From Candidatus Parcubacteria bacterium (lineage in GTDB: Bacteria > Patescibacteriota > Minisyncoccia > Phycocordibacterales > CAIJYI01): a DNA stretch of 64,000 nucleotides. Under the pieces are notes generated by a model that was not told where the DNA came from, did no database searches, and saw only the letters and a list, made by a program, of their open reading frames with translations. A program made the translations under genes and the position numbers. How positions within the stretch are numbered: position 1 is the first letter of the stretch; each line of letters begins with the position of its first letter. Below, piece after piece: positions 8,720 through 54,141 of this stretch. The stretch is taken from positions 122,111 through 186,110 of the forward strand of contig JAPLYL010000002.1 of NCBI GenBank assembly GCA_026395595.1. The letters run 5' to 3'.

Positions 8720-9358
8720 TCAGTTCTTCTTCTCCCTATACCCCAACGCTTCAGCAAGATGTTTTTCCTGAATATCTTCACTTCCCGCAAGGTCGGCGAT
8801 GGTTCGTGCGAGTTTGATGATACGGTGATAAGCACGCGGTGAAAGCGATATTCTGGTCGCGGCGGAATTGAGGAGATTTTTCTCTTTTTCGCCAAGTGGT
8901 GCAAATTTTTCCAAATCTTTTGCGCTCATTTCGGAGTTGGTATTTATCTTTTTGTCGGCAAACCTTTTTTCTTGAATTTCTCTTGCTTTTAGTACTCTGT
9001 CGCGAATATCTTTAGAGGTTTCCATTCCTTCCGGCACTTTGTCAGAGAGTTTTTTGTAGTCGATTTCGGCGACTGGTAGGAAAATATCTATTCGATCCAT
9101 AATCGGACCAGAAAGTTTACGTTCATATTTGTAAATATCTCCTGCCGAACAAACGCACTCTTTTTTAGTACCTTTAAACCCGCACGGACACGGATTCATC
9201 GCGGCAACCAAAATGAAATTCGCTGGAAAAACTTCCGTCCCCTTCGCTCTTGAAATGCTCACAAATTTTTCTTCCAGCGGTTCGCGCAAGCTCTCTAAAA
9301 CTCGTTTTTCAAACTCAGGGAATTCGTCTAAGGTATATGTCCTACAAAAAACATTCAT
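8720..9358 (-). pseudogene. 3' fragment (C-terminal ~205 aa) of a comM/yifB paralogue
   Basis: The translation is ~90% identical to residues ~130-338 of the 9869..10885 ORF (DEFPEFEKRVLESLREPLEEKFVSISRAKGTEV...LAEALGYREKKN); nucleotide identity is ~85%; it has no N-terminal ATPase part. Confidence 0.7.
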
Positions 9359-9868: not shown

Positions 9869-11444
9869 TCAGTTCTTCTTCTCCCTATACCCCAACGCTT
9901 CGGCGAGATGTTTATCTTGTATGTTTTCACTTCCTGCCAAGTCGGCGATGGTTCGCGCAAGTTTTATAATCCGATGATACGCGCGCGGTGAAAGACCCAT
10001 GCGGGTTGCGGCGGAATTGAGGAGGTTTTTTTCTTTTTCTCCGAGCGGAGCGAATTTTTCCAAGTCTTTCGCGCTCATTTCGGAATTGGTATTTATACGT
10101 TTGCCTTCAAATCGTTTCGTTTGTGTTTCGCGAGCTTTTAAAACACGGTCGCGAATATTTTTTGAAGTATCGGTTCCCTCCGGCGCTTTGTCGGAAAGTT
10201 TTTTGTAATCAATTTCGGCGACGGGCAAAAAGATATCAATGCGATCCATAATTGGGCCGGAAAGTTTGCGTTCATATTTGTATATGTCGCCGGCCGAGCA
10301 GACGCACTCCTTTTTAGTACCCTTAAATCCGCACGGACAGGGATTCATCGCGGCGACCAAGATGAAATTCGCCGGAAACACTTCTGTCCCCTTCGCGCGA
10401 CTGATTGAAACAAATTTTTCTTCAAGCGGTTCTCGCAAGCTTTCCAAAACTCGTTTTTCAAATTCGGGAAACTCATCTAAAAACAAGACTCCGCGATGTG
10501 CGAGGGTTACTTCGCCCGGTTTTGGAAAAGCTCCGCCTCCGATCAGTGAAACATATGAAGAAGTATGATGCGGAGCGCGAAATGGGGCGGTGGTGACAAG
10601 CGGTTCTTTAAGTGTGCCGGAAATAGAGTGAATCCCCGTTATCTCCAGAGCTTCTTCAAAAGAAAGTTCTGGCAGTAATTGCGAAAAAGCGCGCGCCAGC
10701 ATAGTTTTCCCTGTACCGGGCGGGCCGAACATAAGAACATTATGCTTTCCTGTTGCGGCGATTTCCAAACCTCGTTTTGCGGTTTCTTGCCCCCCGTACG
10801 TCTTCAAAGCCGTATTCACGCAGTGTTTCTCTTTTTTCAACTCTTCCCGGAACATGAGGCGGAATAGCCTTCGAAGCTGTTTCATCTTCAGATGTCATAG
10901 TATTCAGGTGTCTAATGACCTGTAAAAGCGTTTTACATCCAAAAACCGTAATACCCTCAATGATTGAGGCTTCATCTGCATTCTCATATGGCAGAAAAAC
11001 TTCGGTAAAACCTTTTTCTTTTGCTTTTTGAACCAGAGGAAGCGCCCCTTTAATAGGACGCAGTTCCCCGTTTAATCCGAGTTCTCCCAAGAAAAGTTTT
11101 TCTTTGGTATCAAACTTTATTTCTCCGCCGGCTAACAAGTATGTTAATGCGCACGCGAGATCAAAAAGAGTCCCCTCTTTTTTTATATTTGCCGGAGTGA
11201 GAGAAATTATTATTTTCTGATTTTTTGCTTTCGGTGATTTATACCCGGAATTCTTTATTGCTGCGGAAATGCGGTCTTTTGATTCATCAACGGATTTGTC
11301 GGGAAGTCCTACGACGGAAAAAGAGGCCATTCCTTTAGAAATATCCACTTCCACACAGACAATATGAGCGCGCAGTCCGACAGATTGAGCGCTATAACTT
11401 TTTGCGAAACCCATGATACATAAGAAATAAGCAAAAAGAAACAA
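9869..11444 (-). CDS. comM: Mg-chelatase-like AAA+ ATPase ComM/YifB, interrupted by a 1-nt frameshift in a G6/C6 tract (~10791-10796)
   Basis: The 10740..11444 ORF gives the Lon-like N-terminal domain; the 9869..10885 ORF gives Walker A GPPGTGKT and the C-terminal Mg-chelatase domain; the frames join as ...GFEDVRG|QETAKRGLEIAATG, the expected YifB junction. Confidence 0.8.
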
Positions 11445-19689: not shown

Positions 19690-19708
19690 GTTATCCACAG
19701 TTATCCAC
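19690..19708 (+). promoter_or_regulatory. two tandem perfect DnaA boxes (TTATCCACA g TTATCCACA)
   Basis: Exact matches to the 9-mer consensus at 19690-19698 and 19700-19708, immediately after the xthA stop. Confidence 0.5.
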
Positions 19709-19956
19709 ATTAAAGGACTTGCGTATAAAGGACAAGGAAGTATAATAATAATCAGATAGTGATTCAATAAATAGATAACCAAGGGAACTTATTTGTTCTA
19801 CCGCCTCAACAAAGGCAACCATCTATAAAAACATTATCATAGTCAGTCACATTTGTTCTTTCCTAGGTCACAAAAAATAGAATATACCCCAAGGGCCGCA
19901 CATGCGGCCCTTTATTTATTATTGGTGCTAACCGAGCGGTCTTTTTCGCGACCTTT

Positions 19957-20696: not shown

Positions 20697-20960
20697 TTAT
20701 TGATAGATCTCATGCGAACCTATTTTTAATAAAAATACCGTATTTTCTTCCCCGTACTCAAAAATGATTCGAAATTTATAATTTACTGAAAAACTATAAA
20801 AACCAGACAATTGACCGCCAAGTTTATGAACTTTTAACAATTTATGGTTTCCTTGTTCCTTAAAAAGTTCAATTTTTTCAATCGCCTCGTCTTGAAGCGC
20901 TATCGGAAGTGATTTCCATTGGCGGATAAAGAGAGGAGCATAAGCAATATCTAATTCCAT
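20697..20960 (-). CDS. RelE/ParE-superfamily toxin (type II toxin-antitoxin)
   Basis: 87 aa; the C-terminal SFSVNYKFRIIFEYGEENTVFLLKIGSHEIYQ fits the RelE/ParE/YafQ-like pattern; it lies immediately downstream of the RHH antitoxin gene. Confidence 0.7.
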   Translation of the reverse strand: MELDIAYAPLFIRQWKSLPIALQDEAIEKIELFKEQGNHKLLKVHKLGGQLSGFYSFSVNYKFRIIFEYGEENTVFLLKIGSHEIYQ

Positions 20961-20970
20961 AAAAAGTATA

Positions 20971-21192
20971 TTACCCTAGTTGTTGAGAAAGCTCTCTTAT
21001 ATCCCCCCGCATTGCTTTACCTGCGTGAATTTCTTGCTGTGCCTTGAGAACATCGCTTACCGCCTCATCTTCAGCGAGAAGACGGAGCGCTTGTCTTACT
21101 ACCTCGGCTTTATTTGAAGCCCGGCCTTTCTTTACAAAAGAATCAATAAATTCTTCAAGAGCTGGGTTTAATGGAACAGAAAGAGTACTCAT
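20971..21192 (-). CDS. ParD-like ribbon-helix-helix antitoxin
   Basis: 73 aa; MSTLSVPLNPALEEFIDSFVKKGRASNKAEVVRQALRLL is typical of ParD/COG3609 antitoxins; 10-nt gap to the toxin gene. Confidence 0.7.
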   Translation of the reverse strand: MSTLSVPLNPALEEFIDSFVKKGRASNKAEVVRQALRLLAEDEAVSDVLKAQQEIHAGKAMRGDIRELSQQLG

Positions 21193-21531: not shown

Positions 21532-23223
21532 TTATTTAACCCCGTGTTTCTTGCGTATTTCAGTAAGTTCTTGTTCCTCAGCCTCAGCTTTTGCCTCTTT
21601 CCCTTCTTCTCCAAGTTTTTTAAGCTCTGATTCCGGAAGTTTTATAAGTTCTTGAGTGCGTTTCTCAAGATATTCTGCTGTGTTGAGGTTTGGATCTTCT
21701 AAAACCTCCTCCAGGAGCGCGTGCAGGATAAGTCCAAGTTTTGGTCCGGGTGTTTCATGTGTAACCTCCATTATTCTCGTACCATCAATTTTGAGCATTC
21801 CGACGGAAACAGGTGCACGCATCGCTTCTTCTATCATCGCCTCGTATTTTCGTAAACGATAGGGTTTTTCAACCGGTCTTCCCATTCCAATACGGTCACA
21901 TGCCCTTATTTTCATAAGATCCCACACATTTTCCGGTCCGACATTCGCAACAATCCTTCTTACTGCTGAAAGCGTTATCTTTTCCACATCTGAGAAGAAA
22001 AGATGATATTTTACCAGAGATGAAACCGTATCGGAAAGTTTCACGGGAAACCTTAATCGTTCCATTATCTTCTTTGAAACCCTTCCACCAACGACGTCAT
22101 GCCCGTAAAACGTCCAATTGTCCTTCTCTTTAGACCATCGGCGTGTTTCCGGCTTGGAAATATCGTGCAGCAAAGAGCCTAAACGGATATGAAGAGGCCA
22201 ATTATGCCTCGCCGCATTATCAAGAGCGCGAAGGTTATGTTCCCAGACCGTATAGATATGACTCCCGTTTTGTTCCACACCAATCCCCTTTTCCAGTTCC
22301 GGGACGATAAATCGCAATAAACCAAGCTCATGAGTCAAAACGATACCGCTCATAGTATTCTCCGACATAACTATTTTTACAAATTCATCACGAATTCTTT
22401 CACATGAAACATGTTTCAGATTGTCGGAAAGCTGTTTTATGGCATCTTCCGTCTCTTTTTCTATAGTGAAACCCAGTTGGGTAGCAAAACGAACAGCGCG
22501 CAGTAAACGAAGAGCGTCTTCATTGAAACGGTCTTCCGGTTTCCCTATTGCCCTGACGATTTTGTCCTTTATATCAGATTGTCCTTTATAAAGGTCAACA
22601 ATAATACCCTCTTTTGGGTTGTATGCGAGTGCATTTATCGTAAAATCACGGCGTTTCAGGTCGTCTTCCAGTTTTTTACTGAAAATCACCGCATTCGGAT
22701 GCCTTTTGTCGCTATATTCCGATTCCATTCGGTAAGGCGTAACCTCTATAATAGTTGTTGTTTCATGTGTAACAGGGTTTTCCTCATTTTTTAATGTTTC
22801 ACATGTAACTATTTGATTGACCGCTCGCGCGGCTCGCTGTGGCGTAGGAGTCAGTCTGGGGACTGACGGATGAAAACCTACGGTTTTCATACTTTCCCTT
22901 GTTTCACATGTAACATTTTCGTCACCACCATCTGATGTTTCATGTGTAACGGTCGGTCGGACGTGGTCTCTGACCCCGTCCGGAACATTTGTATTTACCA
23001 CAACCCCCACGGTTCCAAAGGTATTTTCATAGAAGGTTTTCTCAAAAAGCCCGATTATTTCTTCCGGTACGGCATTAGTGGTAACATCCCAATCTTTCGG
23101 TTCCCTTCCCAAAATAAGATCTCTTACACAGCCACCAACCAAATAAGCTTCAAAACCGGCGTCTTGAAGGGTTTCTGTTACACGTGTAACATATAATGGA
23201 ATATGGCTCTGTAAGTCTTTCAT
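21532..23223 (-). CDS. cca: CCA-adding tRNA nucleotidyltransferase (class II, with HD domain) carrying an ~85-aa in-frame insertion
   Basis: LVGGCVRD, RRDFTINA, ERxxxE and a C-terminal HD motif (LLHDISK); the insertion falls between the FGTVGVV and IEVTPYRMESEY blocks. Confidence 0.8.
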   Translation of the reverse strand: MKDLQSHIPLYVTRVTETLQDAGFEAYLVGGCVRDLILGREPKDWDVTTNAVPEEIIGLFEKTFYENTFGTVGVVVNTNVPDGVRDHVRPTVTHETSDGGDENVTCETRESMKTVGFHPSVPRLTPTPQRAARAVNQIVTCETLKNEENPVTHETTTIIEVTPYRMESEYSDKRHPNAVIFSKKLEDDLKRRDFTINALAYNPKEGIIVDLYKGQSDIKDKIVRAIGKPEDRFNEDALRLLRAVRFATQLGFTIEKETEDAIKQLSDNLKHVSCERIRDEFVKIVMSENTMSGIVLTHELGLLRFIVPELEKGIGVEQNGSHIYTVWEHNLRALDNAARHNWPLHIRLGSLLHDISKPETRRWSKEKDNWTFYGHDVVGGRVSKKIMERLRFPVKLSDTVSSLVKYHLFFSDVEKITLSAVRRIVANVGPENVWDLMKIRACDRIGMGRPVEKPYRLRKYEAMIEEAMRAPVSVGMLKIDGTRIMEVTHETPGPKLGLILHALLEEVLEDPNLNTAEYLEKRTQELIKLPESELKKLGEEGKEAKAEAEEQELTEIRKKHGVK

Positions 23224-23283
23224 AAGAGCAATTGTAACAAACTTTTGATATTTTGTGAATTTTAGTGTAGTATACGATTATAA

Positions 23284-23355
23284 GCGCCCGTAGTGAAACG
23301 GATATCACAACGGTCTTCGAAACCGTTAGTCCAGGTTCGAGTCCTGGTGGGCGCA
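23284..23355 (+). tRNA. tRNA-Arg (anticodon TCG)
   Basis: I folded the cloverleaf by hand: acceptor GCGCCCG/TGGGCGC, anticodon loop CTTCGAA, T-loop TTCGAGT, discriminator A; CCA is not encoded. Confidence 0.85.
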
Positions 23356-23418
23356 CAAGAAATATATAAGTATTTTTTCTATTGAAAAAACTTTTATTTT
23401 TCGTATAATAGTGACATT

Positions 23419-23489
23419 GCGGGTATGGTTTAGTGGTAGAACATTTGCTTGCCAAGCAAAAGACGCGGTTTCGATTACCGCTACCCGCA
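23419..23489 (+). tRNA. tRNA-Gly (anticodon GCC)
   Basis: Acceptor GCGGGTA/TACCCGC, anticodon loop TTGCCAA, T-loop TTCGATT. Confidence 0.85.
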
Positions 23490-23496
23490 CAATGAG

Positions 23497-23524
23497 AAAA
23501 TACCGCCATGTGGCGGTATTTTCT
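23497..23524 (+). terminator. rho-independent terminator after the tRNA pair
   Basis: ATACCGCCA-TG-TGGCGGTAT followed by TTTT. Confidence 0.65.
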
Positions 23525-23525
23525 G

Positions 23526-23534
23526 TTATCCACA
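23526..23534 (+). promoter_or_regulatory. perfect DnaA box TTATCCACA
   Basis: Exact 9-mer; a second copy lies in reverse orientation at 23950-23958 (TGTGGATAA). Confidence 0.4.
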
Positions 23535-23567
23535 TAATTAAACTTTCTTTATTTTGTTCATTATTTT

Positions 23568-23891
23568 GTGTATACTAAAGATATGGAAATTAAAACTGAG
23601 TTTGAATCCGCTCTTATTTTACACAACATGCGCGAGTTCGTTATGGACAAACACAAGTTTGATGAATGCATACCGGAAAATATGAAAGAAGACCGAGAAT
23701 ACGGCTTTCTTGTGTCCGGACAGCGCAATTATTGGCTTTTGGGAAAGTTTCCTTTGCATGAAAAACGAGAAGATGGCGTCGTTTCAGCAGATCCGCGCGC
23801 TATTATTAATATCTTTGAAGTAACACATTTCATCGATAACGGACAGATTTGTACGCGAGGAAAATATAAAATACTCCAGATTGTGGGATAA
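23568..23891 (+). CDS. hypothetical protein
   Basis: 107-aa ORF followed by the terminator ACACCC-CTTATC-GGGTGT-TTTT (23915-23937). Confidence 0.4.
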   Translation: MYTKDMEIKTEFESALILHNMREFVMDKHKFDECIPENMKEDREYGFLVSGQRNYWLLGKFPLHEKREDGVVSADPRAIINIFEVTHFIDNGQICTRGKYKILQIVG

Positions 23892-24172
23892 TACTCATCT
23901 ACCATGACTCTTAAACACCCCTTATCGGGTGTTTTTCTATCCCCATAGATATGTAAAACTGTGGATAACTCTGTGTACATGTGTATAAAGGACACTTTTT
24001 TGAACCACTCGCAAGCATTCTTTTTTTGACCTTTTGTCAATAAATGTGGCTTAAAATAACACTATTTGCTTAGGTCATCAAGAGAAAAAGGGTAAAGTAC
24101 AAAAGGGAAAAATAGACGTTTCACATGAAACGTTGTTTTGTGAATTTCCTTTAAAAGGGGTATTATCTTTTT

Positions 24173-24700
24173 ATGTCAAAGACCGAGAAACAAGAAACAG
24201 GGGATATTGGAGAGAAAATAGCGGGACTTTTTTTGAAAACCAAAGGGTTTACCGTTATTGGAACGAATTACCGAAAACCATGGGGAGAAATCGATATTAT
24301 TGTTCAGAAAAAAGGAAAGATTCATTTTATTGAAGTAAAAACCGTAAAAACAAGAGAAAATCAAAACCGATTAGACAAAGGACTTCCCTTAAGGAGGAGC
24401 GGTGAGCGACAAGGAAAGGGGAGTCTTTTGGGAGCGATTATTTTAGGAAAGTTTTTACCGCAGGAAAGATCCTATGCCATCAAAGAAATTTTTGAAGGGG
24501 ACGGTGAAACGAAAGGATATCGCCCCGAGGATAATTTGCACCCATGGAAGCTTCAGCGGCTAAAACGGGCAATTATATCGTATTTGGAAGAAAAAAGGAT
24601 GTCAGAAGAAGACGACTGGCAATTTGACGCCGTTACCGTTCGTTTAAACGAAGAAAGGAAGACTGCTTTGGTTGAGTATTTGGGGGATATTATTCTTTAA
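24173..24700 (+). CDS. YraN-family (UPF0102) endonuclease-like protein with a central insertion
   Basis: GDIGEKIAGLFL...GEIDIIVQKKGKIHFIEVKTVKTR, and the C-terminal WQFDAVTVRL block. Confidence 0.65.
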   Translation: MSKTEKQETGDIGEKIAGLFLKTKGFTVIGTNYRKPWGEIDIIVQKKGKIHFIEVKTVKTRENQNRLDKGLPLRRSGERQGKGSLLGAIILGKFLPQERSYAIKEIFEGDGETKGYRPEDNLHPWKLQRLKRAIISYLEEKRMSEEDDWQFDAVTVRLNEERKTALVEYLGDIIL

Positions 24701-46416: not shown

Positions 46417-47670
46417 ATGCAAATTTCACTTATAGAATTTTCAGTAGAAAACTTCAGCGTTTTTAAAGAAAAGGCAACACTTTCTATGGTGGCGCGGAAA
46501 AATGATAACCATACATTTGAATCAAATGGTGAAAACCTACTGAAAACCTCTTTTATTTATGGTCCGAATGCCTCAGGAAAAACCTCTCTTTTGGACGCTT
46601 TTGTGAATTTGAAAACGGGAATTTTGTTTTCTTCCAATATGAAAGAAAATTCAGAGTTGCCCTATAATCCGTTTTTGGCATCGGAAAACACCAAAACAAA
46701 GCCAGTTTGGTTTGAGTTGGTTTTTTCTGCACTTGGGGATCATGCCGGAATATATAGATATTCCTTCTCTTTCTTGCCGGATCATATTGTTACGGAGAAT
46801 TTTACTAAAATATCTATAACTGGGGTAGAGGAACAACTTATTTCGCGAACGGGGCAAGATATAATACTTTCGGGTTGGGGAGATGACGTACAAATTTTGC
46901 GTGACAAAGCGCGTAAGGAAACACTTTTCTTGTCTGTTGCGGCACAATTCAATAATAAACTTGCCCTAAGTTTTGTGGAGGCGTTAAAAAATGTGAATAT
47001 CATTTCAGGCGTTACTTATGCAACCTATCAGCAATTCACTATAAAAAAATTCAAAGATGATCCGCTATACAAAGAAAGTATTTTAAAATACTTAAAAACT
47101 GCCGACTTTTGTATTTCCGGCGGTCGAACAAAAGAAATTGACATTCCATCTTTAGAAAACGTTAAAGATGAGCCAGATATGTTTTCTGCGGTTAAACGAA
47201 TGATAAAACACACCGCTTTGTTTTTCGAGCATCCTGTGTTTGGTAAAAACAACGAACCGGTCGGTGTGTTCGAGCTGTCTCTTGAAGAAGAGTCAACCGG
47301 TACACAAAATTTTCTTTCTATGCTTGGACCAATCATTAACACTCTTGAAACAGGTAAAGTTCTTGCCATAGACGAATTTGATAACAGCTTGCATCCGCTT
47401 TTGACAAAATTTATTGTCGATCTTTTTGAATCATCTGAGACAAATAAACACAACGCTCAACTTGTCGTAACGACACACGACACAAGTTTACTTTCGTATC
47501 GCGATGATTTTATCAAAGATCAATTTTGGTTTACCGATAAAGATGAATTTGGTTCAGCTCGGCTGTTTTCTCTTGCTGAATTTGATATAAGAAATGATAC
47601 TGAATTTGCGAAAAAATATCTGGAAGGTCGATTTGGCGCTCTGCCGTTTATCGGTTCCGTAAAAAAGTAA
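46417..47670 (+). CDS. AAA_21/ABC-type ATPase (OLD / AbiLi / AriA-like)
   Basis: Walker A GPNASGKTS near the N-terminus, Walker B/D-loop LAIDEFDNSLHP, and H-loop VVTTHD. Confidence 0.75.
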   Translation: MQISLIEFSVENFSVFKEKATLSMVARKNDNHTFESNGENLLKTSFIYGPNASGKTSLLDAFVNLKTGILFSSNMKENSELPYNPFLASENTKTKPVWFELVFSALGDHAGIYRYSFSFLPDHIVTENFTKISITGVEEQLISRTGQDIILSGWGDDVQILRDKARKETLFLSVAAQFNNKLALSFVEALKNVNIISGVTYATYQQFTIKKFKDDPLYKESILKYLKTADFCISGGRTKEIDIPSLENVKDEPDMFSAVKRMIKHTALFFEHPVFGKNNEPVGVFELSLEEESTGTQNFLSMLGPIINTLETGKVLAIDEFDNSLHPLLTKFIVDLFESSETNKHNAQLVVTTHDTSLLSYRDDFIKDQFWFTDKDEFGSARLFSLAEFDIRNDTEFAKKYLEGRFGALPFIGSVKK

Positions 47671-47674
47671 AGGA

Positions 47675-48298
47675 ATGTCTGTTTTTCAACGCAAACGCGA
47701 TACCCGTAAGATTCGCAAAGTAATTCGGATATACACGGAAGGTACAAAAACGGAGCCGAATTATTTCGGCTCGATAAAAGATGAATTGCGAATATCTGAA
47801 ATAGATATTCAAATTCAAGGGGTGCGAGGATTTAACAATCATACTTTACCGCTCGTTGGGTCGGTGATTGAAAGAAAAAAAGAGGAAGAAAAAAATAACG
47901 ATTTTGAAACGGAATGGTGGGTTGTTTTTGATAAAGATGATTTTCCTGATTTTAATAGTGCTATTGATTTGGCACAAAAACACGGCATTAACGTTGTCTA
48001 TTCCAACGAGTGTTTTGAATTATGGTTTATTCTCCATTTTGAGTTTTTGCAGACTTCTCTCGGAAGGAATAATTTTGAACCAAAGTTATCAAAGTTGCTC
48101 GGCAGAAAATATGAAAAGAAGAGTTCGGATATTTACGATCTGATAAAAGATAAAGAATCCAACGCGATTCGTTACGCAAAAAAGCTGGAAAAAATGCATG
48201 ATGATGAAAAAGTGAGTTCTCCGGAACAAAGAGTTCCATCAACTTTAGTCTATAAACTGGTCGAAAGATTACGATCACTAAAAACCGAAAGAGAATAG
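47675..48298 (+). CDS. RloB-like (Toprim-like) protein
   Basis: N-terminal IYTEGTKTEPNYF matches the RloB signature (CEGxTExxYF); starts 5 nt after the ATPase stop. Confidence 0.7.
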   Translation: MSVFQRKRDTRKIRKVIRIYTEGTKTEPNYFGSIKDELRISEIDIQIQGVRGFNNHTLPLVGSVIERKKEEEKNNDFETEWWVVFDKDDFPDFNSAIDLAQKHGINVVYSNECFELWFILHFEFLQTSLGRNNFEPKLSKLLGRKYEKKSSDIYDLIKDKESNAIRYAKKLEKMHDDEKVSSPEQRVPSTLVYKLVERLRSLKTERE

Positions 48299-48302
48299 TT
48301 TT

Positions 48303-48887
48303 ATGACCGCCAAAACCACAAATCGCCATATTAAAATTGTTAATAAAGCAAAGCAAAAAATCAAAGAACTTCTTGAAGATCCGAATTGTGTTTGGAGAAC
48401 CATGAGAATACTTAAGGGGCACACAACGGGATTATCCGAACAAGAAATCCTTGATATTTTGTCGAATCTTGGAGCAACGAGTTCTGTCGGAGAAAAAGGT
48501 GAAAAAATATGGAAGTTACATTCCCGTGGCGATAATGATACCCACAAACAAAAAAAGCAATCTCGAAATAAAATTATTTCTCACTCTGACTATTGGAAAA
48601 ATATTTGGTCCCAATGTTCCAAAATTAAATTCAGATACGTTATAATTTCCATGTTGTTAGTTTCTGCATATCTGGGTTACATAAAATTTTCTCCCGAGGT
48701 AAGCACTCCTCTTGGTAAATTTGCATTTAACACAAGCGAATCAAATAAAGTTCTTAGTTCGTCGGTTTTATCTGCTGATATAAACCCAAAAAAATGGACG
48801 TTTCTGTTTTTGGGTTGGTCTCAAGTATTGATTACCGTAAACCCTTATTCAATGTTCAAAAGAAATGGGAAGGATACAAAGGATTAA
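48303..48887 (+). CDS. hypothetical protein, predicted wHTH N-terminus plus one TM
   Basis: Starts 5 nt after the RloB stop; TM segment FRYVIISMLLVSAYLGYIKF. Confidence 0.45.
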   Translation: MTAKTTNRHIKIVNKAKQKIKELLEDPNCVWRTMRILKGHTTGLSEQEILDILSNLGATSSVGEKGEKIWKLHSRGDNDTHKQKKQSRNKIISHSDYWKNIWSQCSKIKFRYVIISMLLVSAYLGYIKFSPEVSTPLGKFAFNTSESNKVLSSSVLSADINPKKWTFLFLGWSQVLITVNPYSMFKRNGKDTKD

Positions 48888-51019: not shown

Positions 51020-51048
51020 TTGACGAATACATGACAGGAAGTATAATA
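51020..51048 (+). promoter_or_regulatory. near-consensus sigma70 promoter TTGACG-17-TATAAT
   Basis: TTGACG at 51020-51025 and TATAAT at 51043-51048; the DnaA-box-like TTATCCACT at 51001-51009 lies just upstream; AGGAGA SD and ATG at 51055. Confidence 0.5.
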
Positions 51049-51054
51049 GGAGAC

Positions 51055-51795
51055 ATGCACCCCATACAACAAAAGATACTCTCTCTGGCGAAGAGTCAAA
51101 ATATCGCCGGGCTTACACTGCGGAAGATTGGCGAACTTATCAGTGAGCCGGACGCTCCGCAAAAGATCAAACACCATATTGATAAACTGAAAGAAAAAGG
51201 ATTATTGCTTTCTGGAGAAGGTGGCAAGCATCTGAAACCCGCTTCTGGTGGAATAGACAAAATGTCCAGTCTTGTATCTCTGCCGATACTCGGCTCTGCG
51301 AACTGCGGGGAAGCAACGATGTATGCCGACGGGGCGATTGAAGGCTATCTGAAAGTATCGCTTCGCATTTTGGGAGAAAAATTCAGAAATAAATTGGATG
51401 ACCTCTTTGTTTTGCGCGCTTCCGGAAATTCCATGAATCGCGCGAATGTTCACGGTAAAACCATTGACGATGGCGATTATGTTATCGCGGAAAGAATTCA
51501 TGAAGCGCCGAAAAGCGGGGAATATATCGTCTCCATTATTGAAGGTTTGGCGAATATCAAAAAATTCCTGATTGATACCAAAAACGAGCATATTATTCTC
51601 GCTCCCGAATCAAGTTTGGATTTTTCACCGATTTATATACATAAAGAAGACTATTCCGGCTATTTTGTTGGTGGCCGAGTAGTAGATGTCATCAAAAAAC
51701 CGGATGAATTCATGGATTCCTCTGCTGGCGATATCCTCAAATACGGCAAACCGATACGAGAGGTAGATTACTCAAGCAAGAAAAAGAAAAAATAA
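51055..51795 (+). CDS. LexA-like repressor (wHTH plus S24 peptidase domain)
   Basis: N-terminal HTH; C-terminal LRASGNSM (catalytic Ser) and ...KK (Lys) S24 motifs; the ORF track's start at 51031 would contain the -10 element. Confidence 0.7.
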   Translation: MHPIQQKILSLAKSQNIAGLTLRKIGELISEPDAPQKIKHHIDKLKEKGLLLSGEGGKHLKPASGGIDKMSSLVSLPILGSANCGEATMYADGAIEGYLKVSLRILGEKFRNKLDDLFVLRASGNSMNRANVHGKTIDDGDYVIAERIHEAPKSGEYIVSIIEGLANIKKFLIDTKNEHIILAPESSLDFSPIYIHKEDYSGYFVGGRVVDVIKKPDEFMDSSAGDILKYGKPIREVDYSSKKKKK

Positions 51796-52895
51796 TGGAA
51801 ACGAACAAGAAAGTTTCTTTAAATAGTAATTTTACGGAATTTTTACTGTATACTACTCCAAACCATAAGGTAAAGGTTGAAATTTTCTTGCGTGATGAAA
51901 ATATCTGGCTGACGCAAAAATTAATTGCACGGCTTTTTGATTGTTCTTCTGATAATGTTTCTTTTCACTTGAAAAACATTTTTGAAAGCGGTGAATTGCT
52001 GGAAAATTCAGTTACCGAGGAATTCTCGGTAACTGCCGGTGATGGTAAAAAGTATAAGACAAAACATTATAATTTAGATGCGATTATTTCGGTAGGGTAT
52101 CGAGTAAATTCCGCCAATGCGACTCAGTTTCGTATCTGGGCGACCGAACGCTTGAAAGAATATATTATCAAGGGGTTTACTATGGACGATGAACGCTTGA
52201 AAAACCCAAATACGATCTTTGGTAAGGATTATTTTGAAGAACAACTGGCAAGAATTAGAAATATCCGATCTAGCGAAAGACGAATGTATCAGAAAGTTAC
52301 CGATATCTATGCTGAATGTAGCGCTGATTATTCTCCAAATAGCGATATAACGAAAGAATTTTTTGCAACAATTCAAAACAAACTTCATTTTGCAATAACC
52401 GGTAAAACTGCCGCGGAAATTATTTATGAAAGAGTAAAAAATGAAAAACCGAATATCGGACTTACTTCGTGGAAAAACTCTCCAAAAGGAAGAATCCGAG
52501 AAACCGATGTTATCATTGCCAAAAATTACTTAAACGAAAAAGAACTTGACCACCTGAATAGAATTGTCACTATGTACCTTGATTTTGCGGAAATGCAAGC
52601 GAAACGAGGCATTCTTATGAGAATGAAAGATTGGACATCAAAACTGGATGCATTTCTGAAGTTTAACGAGCAGGAAATTTTATCCAACGCAGGAAAAATC
52701 AGCCATGAAGTTGCTGAAGCTTTAGCTCTTGAAGAATACGAAAAATACAGGATAGAACAGGATAAAAATTATATTTCTGATTTTGACAGAGAAGTGAAGA
52801 AAATTTTAGATGTAAAGAAAAAACATGCCAAATTTTCGGAAAGTGATAATTTTTTTGATAAAAATGTTGTAAAAGATAAAAATGAAGGAAATTAA
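51795..52895 (+). CDS. RhuM-family (virulence protein RhuM-like) protein
   Basis: HYNLDAIISVGYRVNSANATQFRIWATERLKEY is the RhuM core signature; its start overlaps the LexA-like stop (ATAATGG). Confidence 0.7.
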   Translation: METNKKVSLNSNFTEFLLYTTPNHKVKVEIFLRDENIWLTQKLIARLFDCSSDNVSFHLKNIFESGELLENSVTEEFSVTAGDGKKYKTKHYNLDAIISVGYRVNSANATQFRIWATERLKEYIIKGFTMDDERLKNPNTIFGKDYFEEQLARIRNIRSSERRMYQKVTDIYAECSADYSPNSDITKEFFATIQNKLHFAITGKTAAEIIYERVKNEKPNIGLTSWKNSPKGRIRETDVIIAKNYLNEKELDHLNRIVTMYLDFAEMQAKRGILMRMKDWTSKLDAFLKFNEQEILSNAGKISHEVAEALALEEYEKYRIEQDKNYISDFDREVKKILDVKKKHAKFSESDNFFDKNVVKDKNEGN

Positions 52896-53012
52896 CAAAA
52901 TTAAACAACTTAAAAATGTTATTAAAGATGCAATAGACGAGCGTTTTAATACAGTGATAAGGTAGAAGTTAAACTGGAAGAGATCATAAATAAAGCTGTA
53001 CTTGAATATGAA

Positions 53013-53315
53013 ATGCTTCTTACTGAAGATGTAAAGCAGGTACTTAAAAATAATTATAAAATAGACTTTTATAACCGTGGATATCTTGGTGATAAAATAA
53101 AAATTTACGAAGCCACCGTTGGGAAAAATGAGTTCAGTAAATTATTGTGGAAAATTAATATGATACGTAATGATTTGAGTCACACACGTATTGATAAACT
53201 TTTTTATAAAAAGCAGGATCTATCTCTAAGAGAAACAAAAGAGGTTTTACTTACTGATTTATTTACTCAAATGATAAACCACGGTGAACCATCCTTAAAA
53301 GTGAATTCAAAATAA
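53013..53315 (+). CDS. hypothetical protein
   Basis: 100-aa ORF. Confidence 0.35.
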   Translation: MLLTEDVKQVLKNNYKIDFYNRGYLGDKIKIYEATVGKNEFSKLLWKINMIRNDLSHTRIDKLFYKKQDLSLRETKEVLLTDLFTQMINHGEPSLKVNSK

Positions 53316-53319
53316 TTTT

Positions 53320-54141
53320 ATGCACAACAATTTAAAAAACCTTGCTATTTTTGAAGGGAATCATATTCGCCGGCTGTGGGACGGGGAAAAAGAACTGTGG
53401 TATTTTTCAATTATCGATGTGATTCAAGTTTTAACAGAAAGCCCGAGACCAAGAAAATACTGGAATGCTTTAAAAACAAAGTTAAAAAACGAAGGAAGTC
53501 AGTTGTCCCAGAAAGTGGGACAACTGAAAATGGAATCTCTTGACGGAAAAATGTACCTTACTGATGTGGCGGATACAGAAACGCTTTTACGACTTATCCA
53601 ATCAACGCCTTCTCCAAAAGCTGAGCCATTTAAGCTTTGGTTGGCAAAGGTTGGATATGAAAGAATGAGGGAAATGGGCGATCCGGAAATAGCGCTTAAC
53701 CGAAGCCGTGTCTATTGGAGAGAGCAGGGGAGAAGTGAAAAATGGATTGAACAAAGAATGACAGGACAAGAAACGAGAAATAAACTCACTGATTACTGGA
53801 GCGAGCACAAAGTAAAGAAAGGCGAAGAATTTGCCATATTGACGAACATCATACATCAAGAATGGAGCGACATATCAGTAAAAGAACACAAAGGACTGAA
53901 AGGTTTAAAAACACAAAATCTTCGTGATCATATGAGTGAAGAAGAATTGATTTTTACCGCGCTGGCTGAACTTTCCACAAGAAGAATTGCAGAAACAGAT
54001 AAGGCCGAAGGATTGGAAGAAAACAAAATTCCGGCAAAAAAAGGCGGAAAAATCGCAAAAGACGCGCGCCTCACTTTAGAAGAAAAAACAGGGAGCAGCG
54101 TCATCACTGGTAAAAACTTTTTGTTGCCATCTAAAAAATAA
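53320..54141 (+). CDS. Bro-N/DinD-like domain protein (antirepressor-like)
   Basis: NHIRRLWDGEKELWYFSIIDVIQVLTESPRPRKYW...AEPFKLWLAKVGYE is Bro-N-like; 273 aa. Confidence 0.55.
   Translation: MHNNLKNLAIFEGNHIRRLWDGEKELWYFSIIDVIQVLTESPRPRKYWNALKTKLKNEGSQLSQKVGQLKMESLDGKMYLTDVADTETLLRLIQSTPSPKAEPFKLWLAKVGYERMREMGDPEIALNRSRVYWREQGRSEKWIEQRMTGQETRNKLTDYWSEHKVKKGEEFAILTNIIHQEWSDISVKEHKGLKGLKTQNLRDHMSEEELIFTALAELSTRRIAETDKAEGLEENKIPAKKGGKIAKDARLTLEEKTGSSVITGKNFLLPSKK

Follow-up and report, generated by a model that had tools for sequence, protein, structure and literature searches.

parS-like palindromes and a dispersed hairpin repeat in a variable loop of a CCA-adding enzyme from Candidatus Parcubacteria

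Introduction

How can an essential enzyme come to carry, in frame, a long insert made of palindromes? The question is raised by cca, the gene for the CCA-adding enzyme, in a 64,000-nucleotide stretch of DNA from a Candidatus Parcubacteria bacterium (GenBank assembly GCA_026395595.1, contig JAPLYL010000002.1, positions 122,111 to 186,110). This whole stretch is referred to here as the window, and coordinates are those of the window unless a related locus is named. An earlier note on the window had reported the insertion, with four copies of a 14-bp palindrome and two further hairpins, and had likened the whole of it to the Rickettsia palindromic elements (RPEs).

The insert is best explained as two kinds of DNA-level sequence combined in a permissive β-hairpin turn of the enzyme. 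We put at about 65% the probability that its palindromes are an origin-proximal cluster of parS-type sites, accompanied in the loop by one copy of a dispersed hairpin-rich repeat, which we call the module. parS is a centromere-like sequence: ParB dimers load on it and spread, bring in SMC and tag the origin for segregation.

Results

The insert occupies a variable loop in the head domain of Cca

Cca has Pfam matches to the PolyA_pol head (8e-36) and PolyA_pol_RNAbd (1e-18) domains as well as to HD, and it shows the features of a class II CCA-adding enzyme: the body RNA-binding domain together with the GGxVRD, RRD and EDxxR motifs, present here as GGCVRD, RRDFT and NEDALR and invariant in an alignment of orthologues. 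Its closest relatives in the PDB are CCA-adding enzymes, and its orthologues are annotated as CCA tRNA nucleotidyltransferases, the named ones leading to Patescibacteria/Paceibacterota.

The insert, of about 78 residues, stands at a position where solved enzymes have about six. Residues 74 to 159 of Cca align with 110 to 117 of the solved CCA-adding enzyme 6ibp_A, and the spacing from GTVGV to EVTPYR is 85 residues, compared with 13 in the shortest orthologues. The in-frame insertion of the earlier note, in a loop of the head domain, is thus borne out by both comparisons. Its suggestion that a structure be modelled was also answered. In the AlphaFold2 (AF2) model, residues 81 to 154 have predicted local distance difference test (pLDDT) scores of 25 to 37 and no secondary structure, and confident strands lie on either side (72–77 and 156–163), placing the insert in a loop predicted to be disordered.

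Among orthologues that are otherwise 70–90% identical, the insert ranges from 0 to about 170 aa and contains many V[TS]xET motifs. Insert length follows the number of motifs (r = 0.84), and the inserts of close relatives differ by entire units that have palindromes as their borders. No Pfam family matched the insert, and no sign of a protein function was found in it. An assembly or frameshift artefact, the objection that the earlier note had itself raised, is ruled out by the varying forms of the insert in several independent assemblies. An intein, an intron and a folded domain are ruled out by the predicted disorder, the lack of a Pfam match and the hypervariable sequence.

The palindromes resemble the core of chromosomal parS

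The motif GTTTCAYRTGTAAC has five matches in the 64 kb of the window, at 21752, 22760, 22796, 22901 and 22937, where none is expected (100 shuffles). All five lie in cca and in its reading frame, encoding VTHET or VTCET. The last four are the palindromes that had been reported in the insert, and all four were recovered; the first of them starts at 22760 and not at 22759. Palindromes beyond the insert, at 21752, 22038, 22397, 23177 and 24118, had gone unreported. Nine sites lie within two mismatches of the core GTTTCACGTGAAAC, all of them in the ~2.4 kb from 21752 to 24131 and none elsewhere in the window, compared with 0.42 expected in 64 kb. By sequence, the 14-mers are members of the family GTTNCANNTGAAAC(A), which is the core of chromosomal parS; the consensus published for parS is TGTTNCACGTGAAACA (PMC7022226).

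The family was followed in 80 related genome loci (81 with the window). In the 80 related loci, the family GTTNCANNTGNAAC has a density of 0.84 per kb in cca and 0.06 per kb in the flanks, a difference of about 14-fold, and even the flank copies are far above chance. These flank copies fall into two groups: perfect GTTTCACGTGAAAC sites in intergenic DNA 1–2 kb upstream of cca, and sites in frame within the neighbouring yraN-like gene. At the level of the lineage, the sites agree with the 16-bp parS palindrome TGTTNCACGTGAAACA: the perfect core GTTTCACGTGAAAC occurs 15 times in the related loci and GTTNCACGTGAAAC is matched 31 times. A perfect GTTTCACGTGAAAC is found in relatives at the position of the window's 24118 site, and the variants of the perfect core within cca include GTTACACATGAAAC, GTTACATGTGAAAC and GTTACACGTGTAAC. 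In a logo of 171 instances, conservation reaches the 16-mer, T at −1 and A at +15 each being present in 57% against a background of 29%. Variation is not spread evenly over the family; it is found mainly at the N position and the central dinucleotide.

The sites are also restricted in location. Across the 81 loci, parS-like sites are confined to the interval from −4 to +2 kb around the start of cca and are absent elsewhere. Among 49 metagenome loci picked independently of cca, the count of parS-like sites was 0 where cca was absent and 3 to 8 where it was present.

Two side observations concern the upstream end of this cluster. The 24118 site extends to a 20-nt palindrome, GACGTTTCACATGAAACGTT, at 24115–24134, followed by a T-run, and received a terminator-like score on both strands in a simple scan. 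In the yraN-like protein (175 aa), the match to the UPF0102 profile is limited to residues 13–62, and an insertion of its own follows FIEVKT; in relatives this insertion holds in-frame parS-like sites (VSCET, VTHET, VPHET) and, in locus L004 (8222–8385), a copy of the module.

Codon use places the constraint on the DNA

In the cca genes of the 81 loci, motifs were chosen by peptide only, as V-[STPA]-x-E-T (n = 96), and their codons were compared with background. Val was encoded by GTT in 97% (background 37%), Glu by GAA in 99% (65%) and the final Thr by ACA in 80% (36%), and the third positions of residues 2 and 3 were A and T in about 80%. These favoured bases are exactly those that parS needs, including one base beyond the 14-mer. 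Because the synonymous codons are locked to the parS bases, the constraint on the palindromes acts on the DNA and not on the peptide, and a tandem peptide repeat under protein selection is ruled out. The earlier view that the insert derives from palindromic and hairpin sequence at the DNA level, rather than from a protein domain, therefore stands.

Canonical parS can be read as V-S-R-E-T, as F-H-V-K-H or in a third frame that contains TGA. Among 109 sites within cca, the first frame is used by 99, the second by 9 and the TGA-bearing frame by one.

The site cluster surrounds a putative replication origin

The cumulative GC skew of the window has its minimum at about 20–24 kb, and gene orientation switches at about 23–24 kb, genes to the left lying on the minus strand and genes to the right on the plus strand. 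The four perfect DnaA boxes of the window (19691, 19701, 23526 and 23960) all fall within 19.7–24.0 kb. The 680-bp gap between tRNA-Gly and yraN contains three DnaA boxes, one of them imperfect, together with the best parS-like site. Across the 81 loci, perfect DnaA boxes peak from −3 to 0 kb relative to cca, at 0.16–0.42 per locus per kb over a background of about 0.04. Taken together, skew, gene orientation and DnaA boxes point to a replication origin in the region upstream of cca, and the parS-like sites would then show the origin-proximal clustering that is typical of parS.

Further observations were made on this region. Two clusters of perfect DnaA boxes bracket cca (19691–19709 and 23526–23988), and the same holds in locus L131 (2366–2379 and 5353–5363); they may form a bipartite origin. 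A 107-aa open reading frame (ORF) without a Pfam match, which may not be a real gene, lies between the DnaA boxes of the putative origin (23568–23891). In locus L104 (1–964), a module copy directly follows the 3' end of dnaA and is itself followed at once by a DnaA box.

The centre of the insert is a dispersed structured repeat

Both further hairpins of the insert were recovered as described; they fall within the 91-nt module, itself a dispersed repeat. A metagenome scan matched 49 loci. About 33 of these are true copies, with shared flanks (...CAAGGGAAAGT and GCGCGAGCGAT...CAAATAG), and the others are chance matches in GC-rich contigs. True copies are 65–90 nt long and lie in unrelated contexts, mostly intergenic, as a long form or as a short form without hairpin 2. 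Copies within cca are found in the window and in loci L001, L002, L082, L099, L130 and L131, and one within yraN in L004; the reading frame is open in all of them. The earlier note had proposed a search for further copies of the whole segment. What the search found elsewhere was the module by itself: none of the dispersed copies away from cca carries the 14-mers. Its RPE-like reading accordingly holds for the central 91 nt, which are dispersed, hairpin-rich and read in differing frames in relatives, and fails for the four 14-mers, which are not part of the module.

Six of 27 distinct module copies adjoin an annotated tRNA 3' end (Arg, Gly, Ala or Thr). The tRNA-adjoining copies start exactly at the annotated 3' end (offset −1), in L003 (9785–9870), L004 (8909–8976), L097, L101, L111 and L128. 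Three further copies adjoin tRNA-like 3' fragments that ARAGORN did not call. The cca mRNA thus in effect carries the antisense of a pre-tRNA trailer element.

Base pairing is preserved in the module. Hairpin 1 shows UA/CG covariation at its closing pair, and hairpin 2 occurs with 10 distinct stem types in which pairing is kept. RNAalifold, run on an alignment with gaps (A3), recovered hairpin 1 only, and hairpin 2 was analysed by script. Positions that are not Watson-Crick pairs comprise 13 A.C and one G.T on the cca-sense strand, and in 30 of 32 copies the more stable fold is that of the cca-antisense strand (p = 3e-6). It is thus this strand, with the same direction as the tRNAs, that carries the structure of the module. 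The last hairpin on this strand has a terminator-like score, and the module may be mobile or may act as a terminator. No Rfam family matched it.

The peptide encoded by the module is incidental: L130 and L131 keep about 90% identity in the DNA even though a change of reading frame occurs within the module. L130, whose Cca is 89% identical to that of the window, has two tandem units of palindrome plus module, translated as ...SPKTIGSHCQSSDWPLRPASRASDIQIV and ...SMKTIGFHPSVPKLPPTLQRAERAINQIV. Two other ideas were discarded: the suggestion that two module copies precede a 5S rRNA was unsupported, and a start codon in the AAGGGAAAGT-ATG of the module was ruled out, the ATG covarying as a stem (ATG/CAT, GTG/CAC, TCG/CGA).

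Features of the region and of the rest of the window

The features discussed are collected in Table 1.

Table 1. Features of the cca region in window coordinates
Feature	Position	Strand	Basis or remark
cca, class II CCA-adding enzyme with HD domain, 563 aa	21532..23223	minus	ORF, Pfam, named orthologues
In-frame insert, about residues 78-155, in place of the head-domain β-hairpin turn	22759..22992	minus	Orthologue alignment (A1), AF2, solved homologue
parS-like site GTTTCATGTGTAAC	22760..22773		VTHET on the cca strand; 2 mismatches to GTTTCACGTGAAAC
parS-like site GTTTCACATGTAAC	22796..22809		VTCET; perfect half-site GTTTCAC; directly adjoins the module
Module, one long-form copy of a dispersed hairpin-rich repeat, 91 nt	22810..22900	plus (structured strand), antisense to cca	blastn copies in relatives, alignments A2/A3
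Module hairpin 2, GTCAGTC-TGGG-GACTGAC	22850..22867	plus	Missing from short-form copies
Module hairpin 1, ATGAAAACC-TAC-GGTTTTCAT ((AT)GAAAACC-TAC-GGTTTTC(AT)), then ACTTTCCCTT	22870..22890	plus	Terminator-like on the plus strand
parS-like site GTTTCACATGTAAC	22901..22914		VTCET; identical to the 22796 site; brackets the other side of the module
parS-like site GTTTCATGTGTAAC	22937..22950		VTHET; identical to the 22760 site
parS-like site in the C-terminal part of cca	21752..21765		EVTHETPGPK; 2 mismatches
parS-like site GTTTCACGGGAAAC	22038..22051		1 mismatch; in the other open frame (FPVK)
parS-like site CTTTCACATGAAAC	22397..22410		VSCE; 2 mismatches; overlaps a conserved cca motif, maybe partly coincidental
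Perfect palindrome GTTACACGTGTAAC	23177..23190		cca codons 12-16, VTRVT; both core differences at the N-type position of the half-sites
Best parS-like site of the window, GTTTCACATGAAAC	24118..24131		1 mismatch; intergenic, 42 nt upstream of yraN
Tandem pair of perfect DnaA boxes	19691..19709	plus	Other side of cca; same layout in L131
Putative replication-origin region	23491..24172		Skew, strand switch, DnaA boxes 23526, 23960 and 23980 (the last with 1 mismatch)
tRNA-Arg(TCG) and tRNA-Gly(GCC), divergent from cca	23284..23490	plus	In relatives, module copies adjoin the 3' ends of these tRNAs
yraN-like gene (UPF0102)	24173..24700	plus	In relatives, hosts in-frame parS-like sites; in L004, a module copy

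Directly downstream of cca lies a pair of small genes (73 aa and 87 aa; 20697–21192, minus strand), whose orthologues in L130 give weak Pfam matches to a ParD antitoxin and a HigB-like toxin. Farther away, two Mg-chelatase/ComM-like ORFs, one comprising the C-terminal part only (8720–9358) and one of full length (9869–10885), look like a partial duplication. An AAA_21 ATPase and RloB, resembling an OLD-like defence pair, are followed by S24 peptidase-like, RhuM and Bro-N genes, and these two segments (46417–48887 and 51031–54141) are probably a mobile or prophage-derived island.

Discussion

In the explanation that we favour, the four 14-bp palindromes would be members of a cluster of parS-type sites near the origin, to which ParB would bind. 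The putative oriC of this Paceibacterota lineage would lie immediately upstream of cca, and the lineage has very little intergenic DNA, so that the cluster would spill into the coding sequences of cca and yraN. An in-frame parS reads V-(S/T)-x-E-T without a stop codon, and sites could therefore build up in the loop with the enzyme intact. The β-hairpin turn would be a permissive spot at which sites, and occasionally a module, accumulate and turn over, and the repeated palindromes would promote gain and loss of the intervening units by recombination, so that loops would differ greatly from species to species. Between the inner palindromes, the 91 nt are one copy of a lineage-specific dispersed structured repeat, lying antisense to cca and simply translated through.

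Several points weigh against this explanation. The window has no perfect site, and the four copies in the insert have CATGTG or CACATG in place of the CACGTG core. In P. aeruginosa this core matters for binding, and sites with two mismatches bind weakly and can neither support segregation nor replace the origin-proximal high-affinity sites (PMC4368675); the window's own sites, with their altered core, are probably weak. Across the 81 loci, no site within cca equals the all-T canonical core, which 15 upstream sites do, and the N-containing consensus is matched by only 14 sites within cca (only 2 in the insert) compared with 16 upstream. Copies within the gene could thus be weak sites with an auxiliary role, or by-products that are decaying. 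The origin was called from skew, orientation and DnaA boxes, and a single locus has dnaA close by. Pfam on about 40 ORFs of the window, phmmer with Spo0J and Soj probes on ~1.6 Mb of related DNA, and regular-expression signatures all failed to reveal a ParB or ParA gene. When DnaA was included among the phmmer probes, it alone matched, in L018 and L104; the Spo0J probe had been confirmed as exact by a database search that returned only Bacillus matches. A literature search on ParB or partition genes in Patescibacteria, the candidate phyla radiation (CPR), Parcubacteria and Saccharibacteria gave nothing usable, and the presence of ParB in the lineage is unproven. Lastly, the metagenome scan used a pattern that was unanchored on cca and that fixed 22 bases of the module, at which conservation is uninformative.

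Some of these points would also fit palindromes that are functionless parS derivatives. They would have arisen from the intergenic parS by local duplication or gene conversion, decayed in the core, and been kept only because the loop is tolerant. The canonical core is confined to the upstream sites, a CA/TG centre that is one CpG->TpG step from consensus dominates, two-mismatch sites are weak in P. aeruginosa (PMC4368675), and units are gained and lost between close relatives. We nevertheless think it unlikely that the palindromes are functionless. Synonymous positions 3, 6, 9, 12 and 15 are fixed across species whose spacers cannot be aligned, variation is focused at the N position and the central dinucleotide, and the same variants are common in non-coding upstream DNA too. 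The fixed synonymous positions argue for some retained constraint on the in-gene copies.

The proposal with which the locus was first described, that one selfish, mobile, palindromic element of RPE type makes up the entire 240 nt, 14-mers included, now appears very unlikely. It draws on the dispersed nature of the central module and its tolerance in frame, on the 14-mers that bracket the module at the same junction in cca and in yraN, and on the two tandem units of 14-mer plus module in L130. Yet dispersed modules away from cca never come with 14-mers. Conversely, 14-mers are found with no module in most orthologues, and likewise in the intergenic DNA upstream and within yraN. The 14-mers are also restricted to a single locus instead of being spread over the genome, and they match parS.

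A further rival would make the palindromes operators of another DNA-binding protein, such as a transcription factor that controls cca, the tRNAs and yraN. Sites at +34 in cca and 42 nt upstream of yraN are placed as operators might be, and the search for a ParB gene in the window and ~1.6 Mb of related DNA was negative. Up to nine sites within one coding sequence, a match to the pan-bacterial parS core at 14 of 14 positions in relatives, and co-localisation of the sites with DnaA boxes and the skew minimum make the operator reading highly improbable. That the insert functions as protein, for instance as an extra tRNA contact or as a Cys/His metal site (H-x11-C-x34-C-x11-H) formed by the two His and two Cys of its symmetric VTHET/VTCET/VTCET/VTHET, can be given almost no credence, against a loop that is predicted to be disordered, that varies from 0 to ~170 aa among orthologues 70–90% identical elsewhere, whose H/C position is also occupied by R, G, Y, D and others, whose codon choice is locked to the DNA motif and whose module is read in differing frames.

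A bolder coupling can be imagined, which we regard as rather improbable. Because the module elsewhere begins at tRNA 3' ends, where Cca later acts, pairing of pre-tRNA trailers with the cca mRNA, which carries about 91 nt antisense to the module, could couple the output of the CCA enzyme to the backlog of unfinished tRNAs, and the parS array would place cca in the centromere. In a milder form, selection on the centromere array, and not protein function, may create and maintain a hypervariable loop in an essential enzyme.

The locus illustrates how an essential protein can take up sequences that act in cis on the chromosome. In this highly compact genome, centromere-type sites beside the putative origin appear to be carried as an expandable disordered loop, which is longer where the DNA sites are more numerous. 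Clusters of parS near origins and their variable copy number are known, and what drives copy number and clustering is an open question (PMC7333895), on which this locus bears. In practical terms, the array may serve as a marker for the origin or segregation locus in uncultivated Patescibacteria, on whose chromosome segregation system no papers were found. The module adds to the phylum a previously undescribed structured repeat family that adjoins tRNA 3' ends and, like the RPEs of Rickettsia, is tolerated in frame. For annotation, V-T/S-x-E-T repeats in such proteins should be read as footprints of DNA sites and not as protein motifs. The literature searched offered no description of in-frame stacked parS-type sites by which the loop of an essential enzyme is lengthened to different extents in different species, and none of this repeat family in Patescibacteria.

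Known small repeats include REP/BIME and non-autonomous sequences that carry terminators, such as Correia/NEMIS. The module resembles them in being short, structured, multi-copy and mostly intergenic, with an orientation-specific single-strand structure and a terminator-like hairpin. Its long forms recall the REP layout of GTAG followed by a palindrome, as GGCGTAGG precedes hairpin 2 on the structured strand; the short forms lack that hairpin. It differs from these families in that the start of several copies coincides exactly with a tRNA gene end, and no RAYT or transposase was identified. Nor does the module have the features of a miniature inverted-repeat transposable element (MITE). The ends of its consensus, CAAGGGAAAGT... 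and ...CAAATAG, are not inverted repeats, and the flanks of dispersed copies show no clear duplication; only the module copy of the window is bracketed by identical 14-mers.

The RPEs, reportedly described by Ogata and colleagues in 2000, are said to be selfish repeats of roughly 100–150 bp that lie in frame within protein genes. The likeness extends to the module only, a dispersed hairpin-forming repeat of ~90 nt that sits in frame in cca and yraN, at a tolerated and predicted exposed position, probably a surface loop, with any open frame translated. The 14-mers, found at one locus, are not a dispersed repeat and are not part of the module. The module also belongs to another lineage, Patescibacteria rather than Rickettsia, and is likened to RPEs by its features and not by its sequence; its in-gene copies are exceptional, most being intergenic or at tRNA 3' ends.

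The closest counterpart of the 14-mers is chromosomal parS of the ParABS systems of B. subtilis, Caulobacter, P. aeruginosa and others, with which they share the palindromic core, the clustering of several copies near a putative origin and the mixture of perfect and imperfect sites. Location within a gene is itself familiar, chromosomal parS often lying inside genes, as within spo0J in B. subtilis. Unlike in those systems, no cognate ParB was identified here, either in the window or among the ~1.6 Mb of related DNA, and the copies in the window all deviate at the core. What further sets the cca sites apart from chromosomal parS is that they are stacked in one reading frame in a loop of an essential enzyme, where they appear to have lengthened the protein, and that the insert they form is hypervariable between species.

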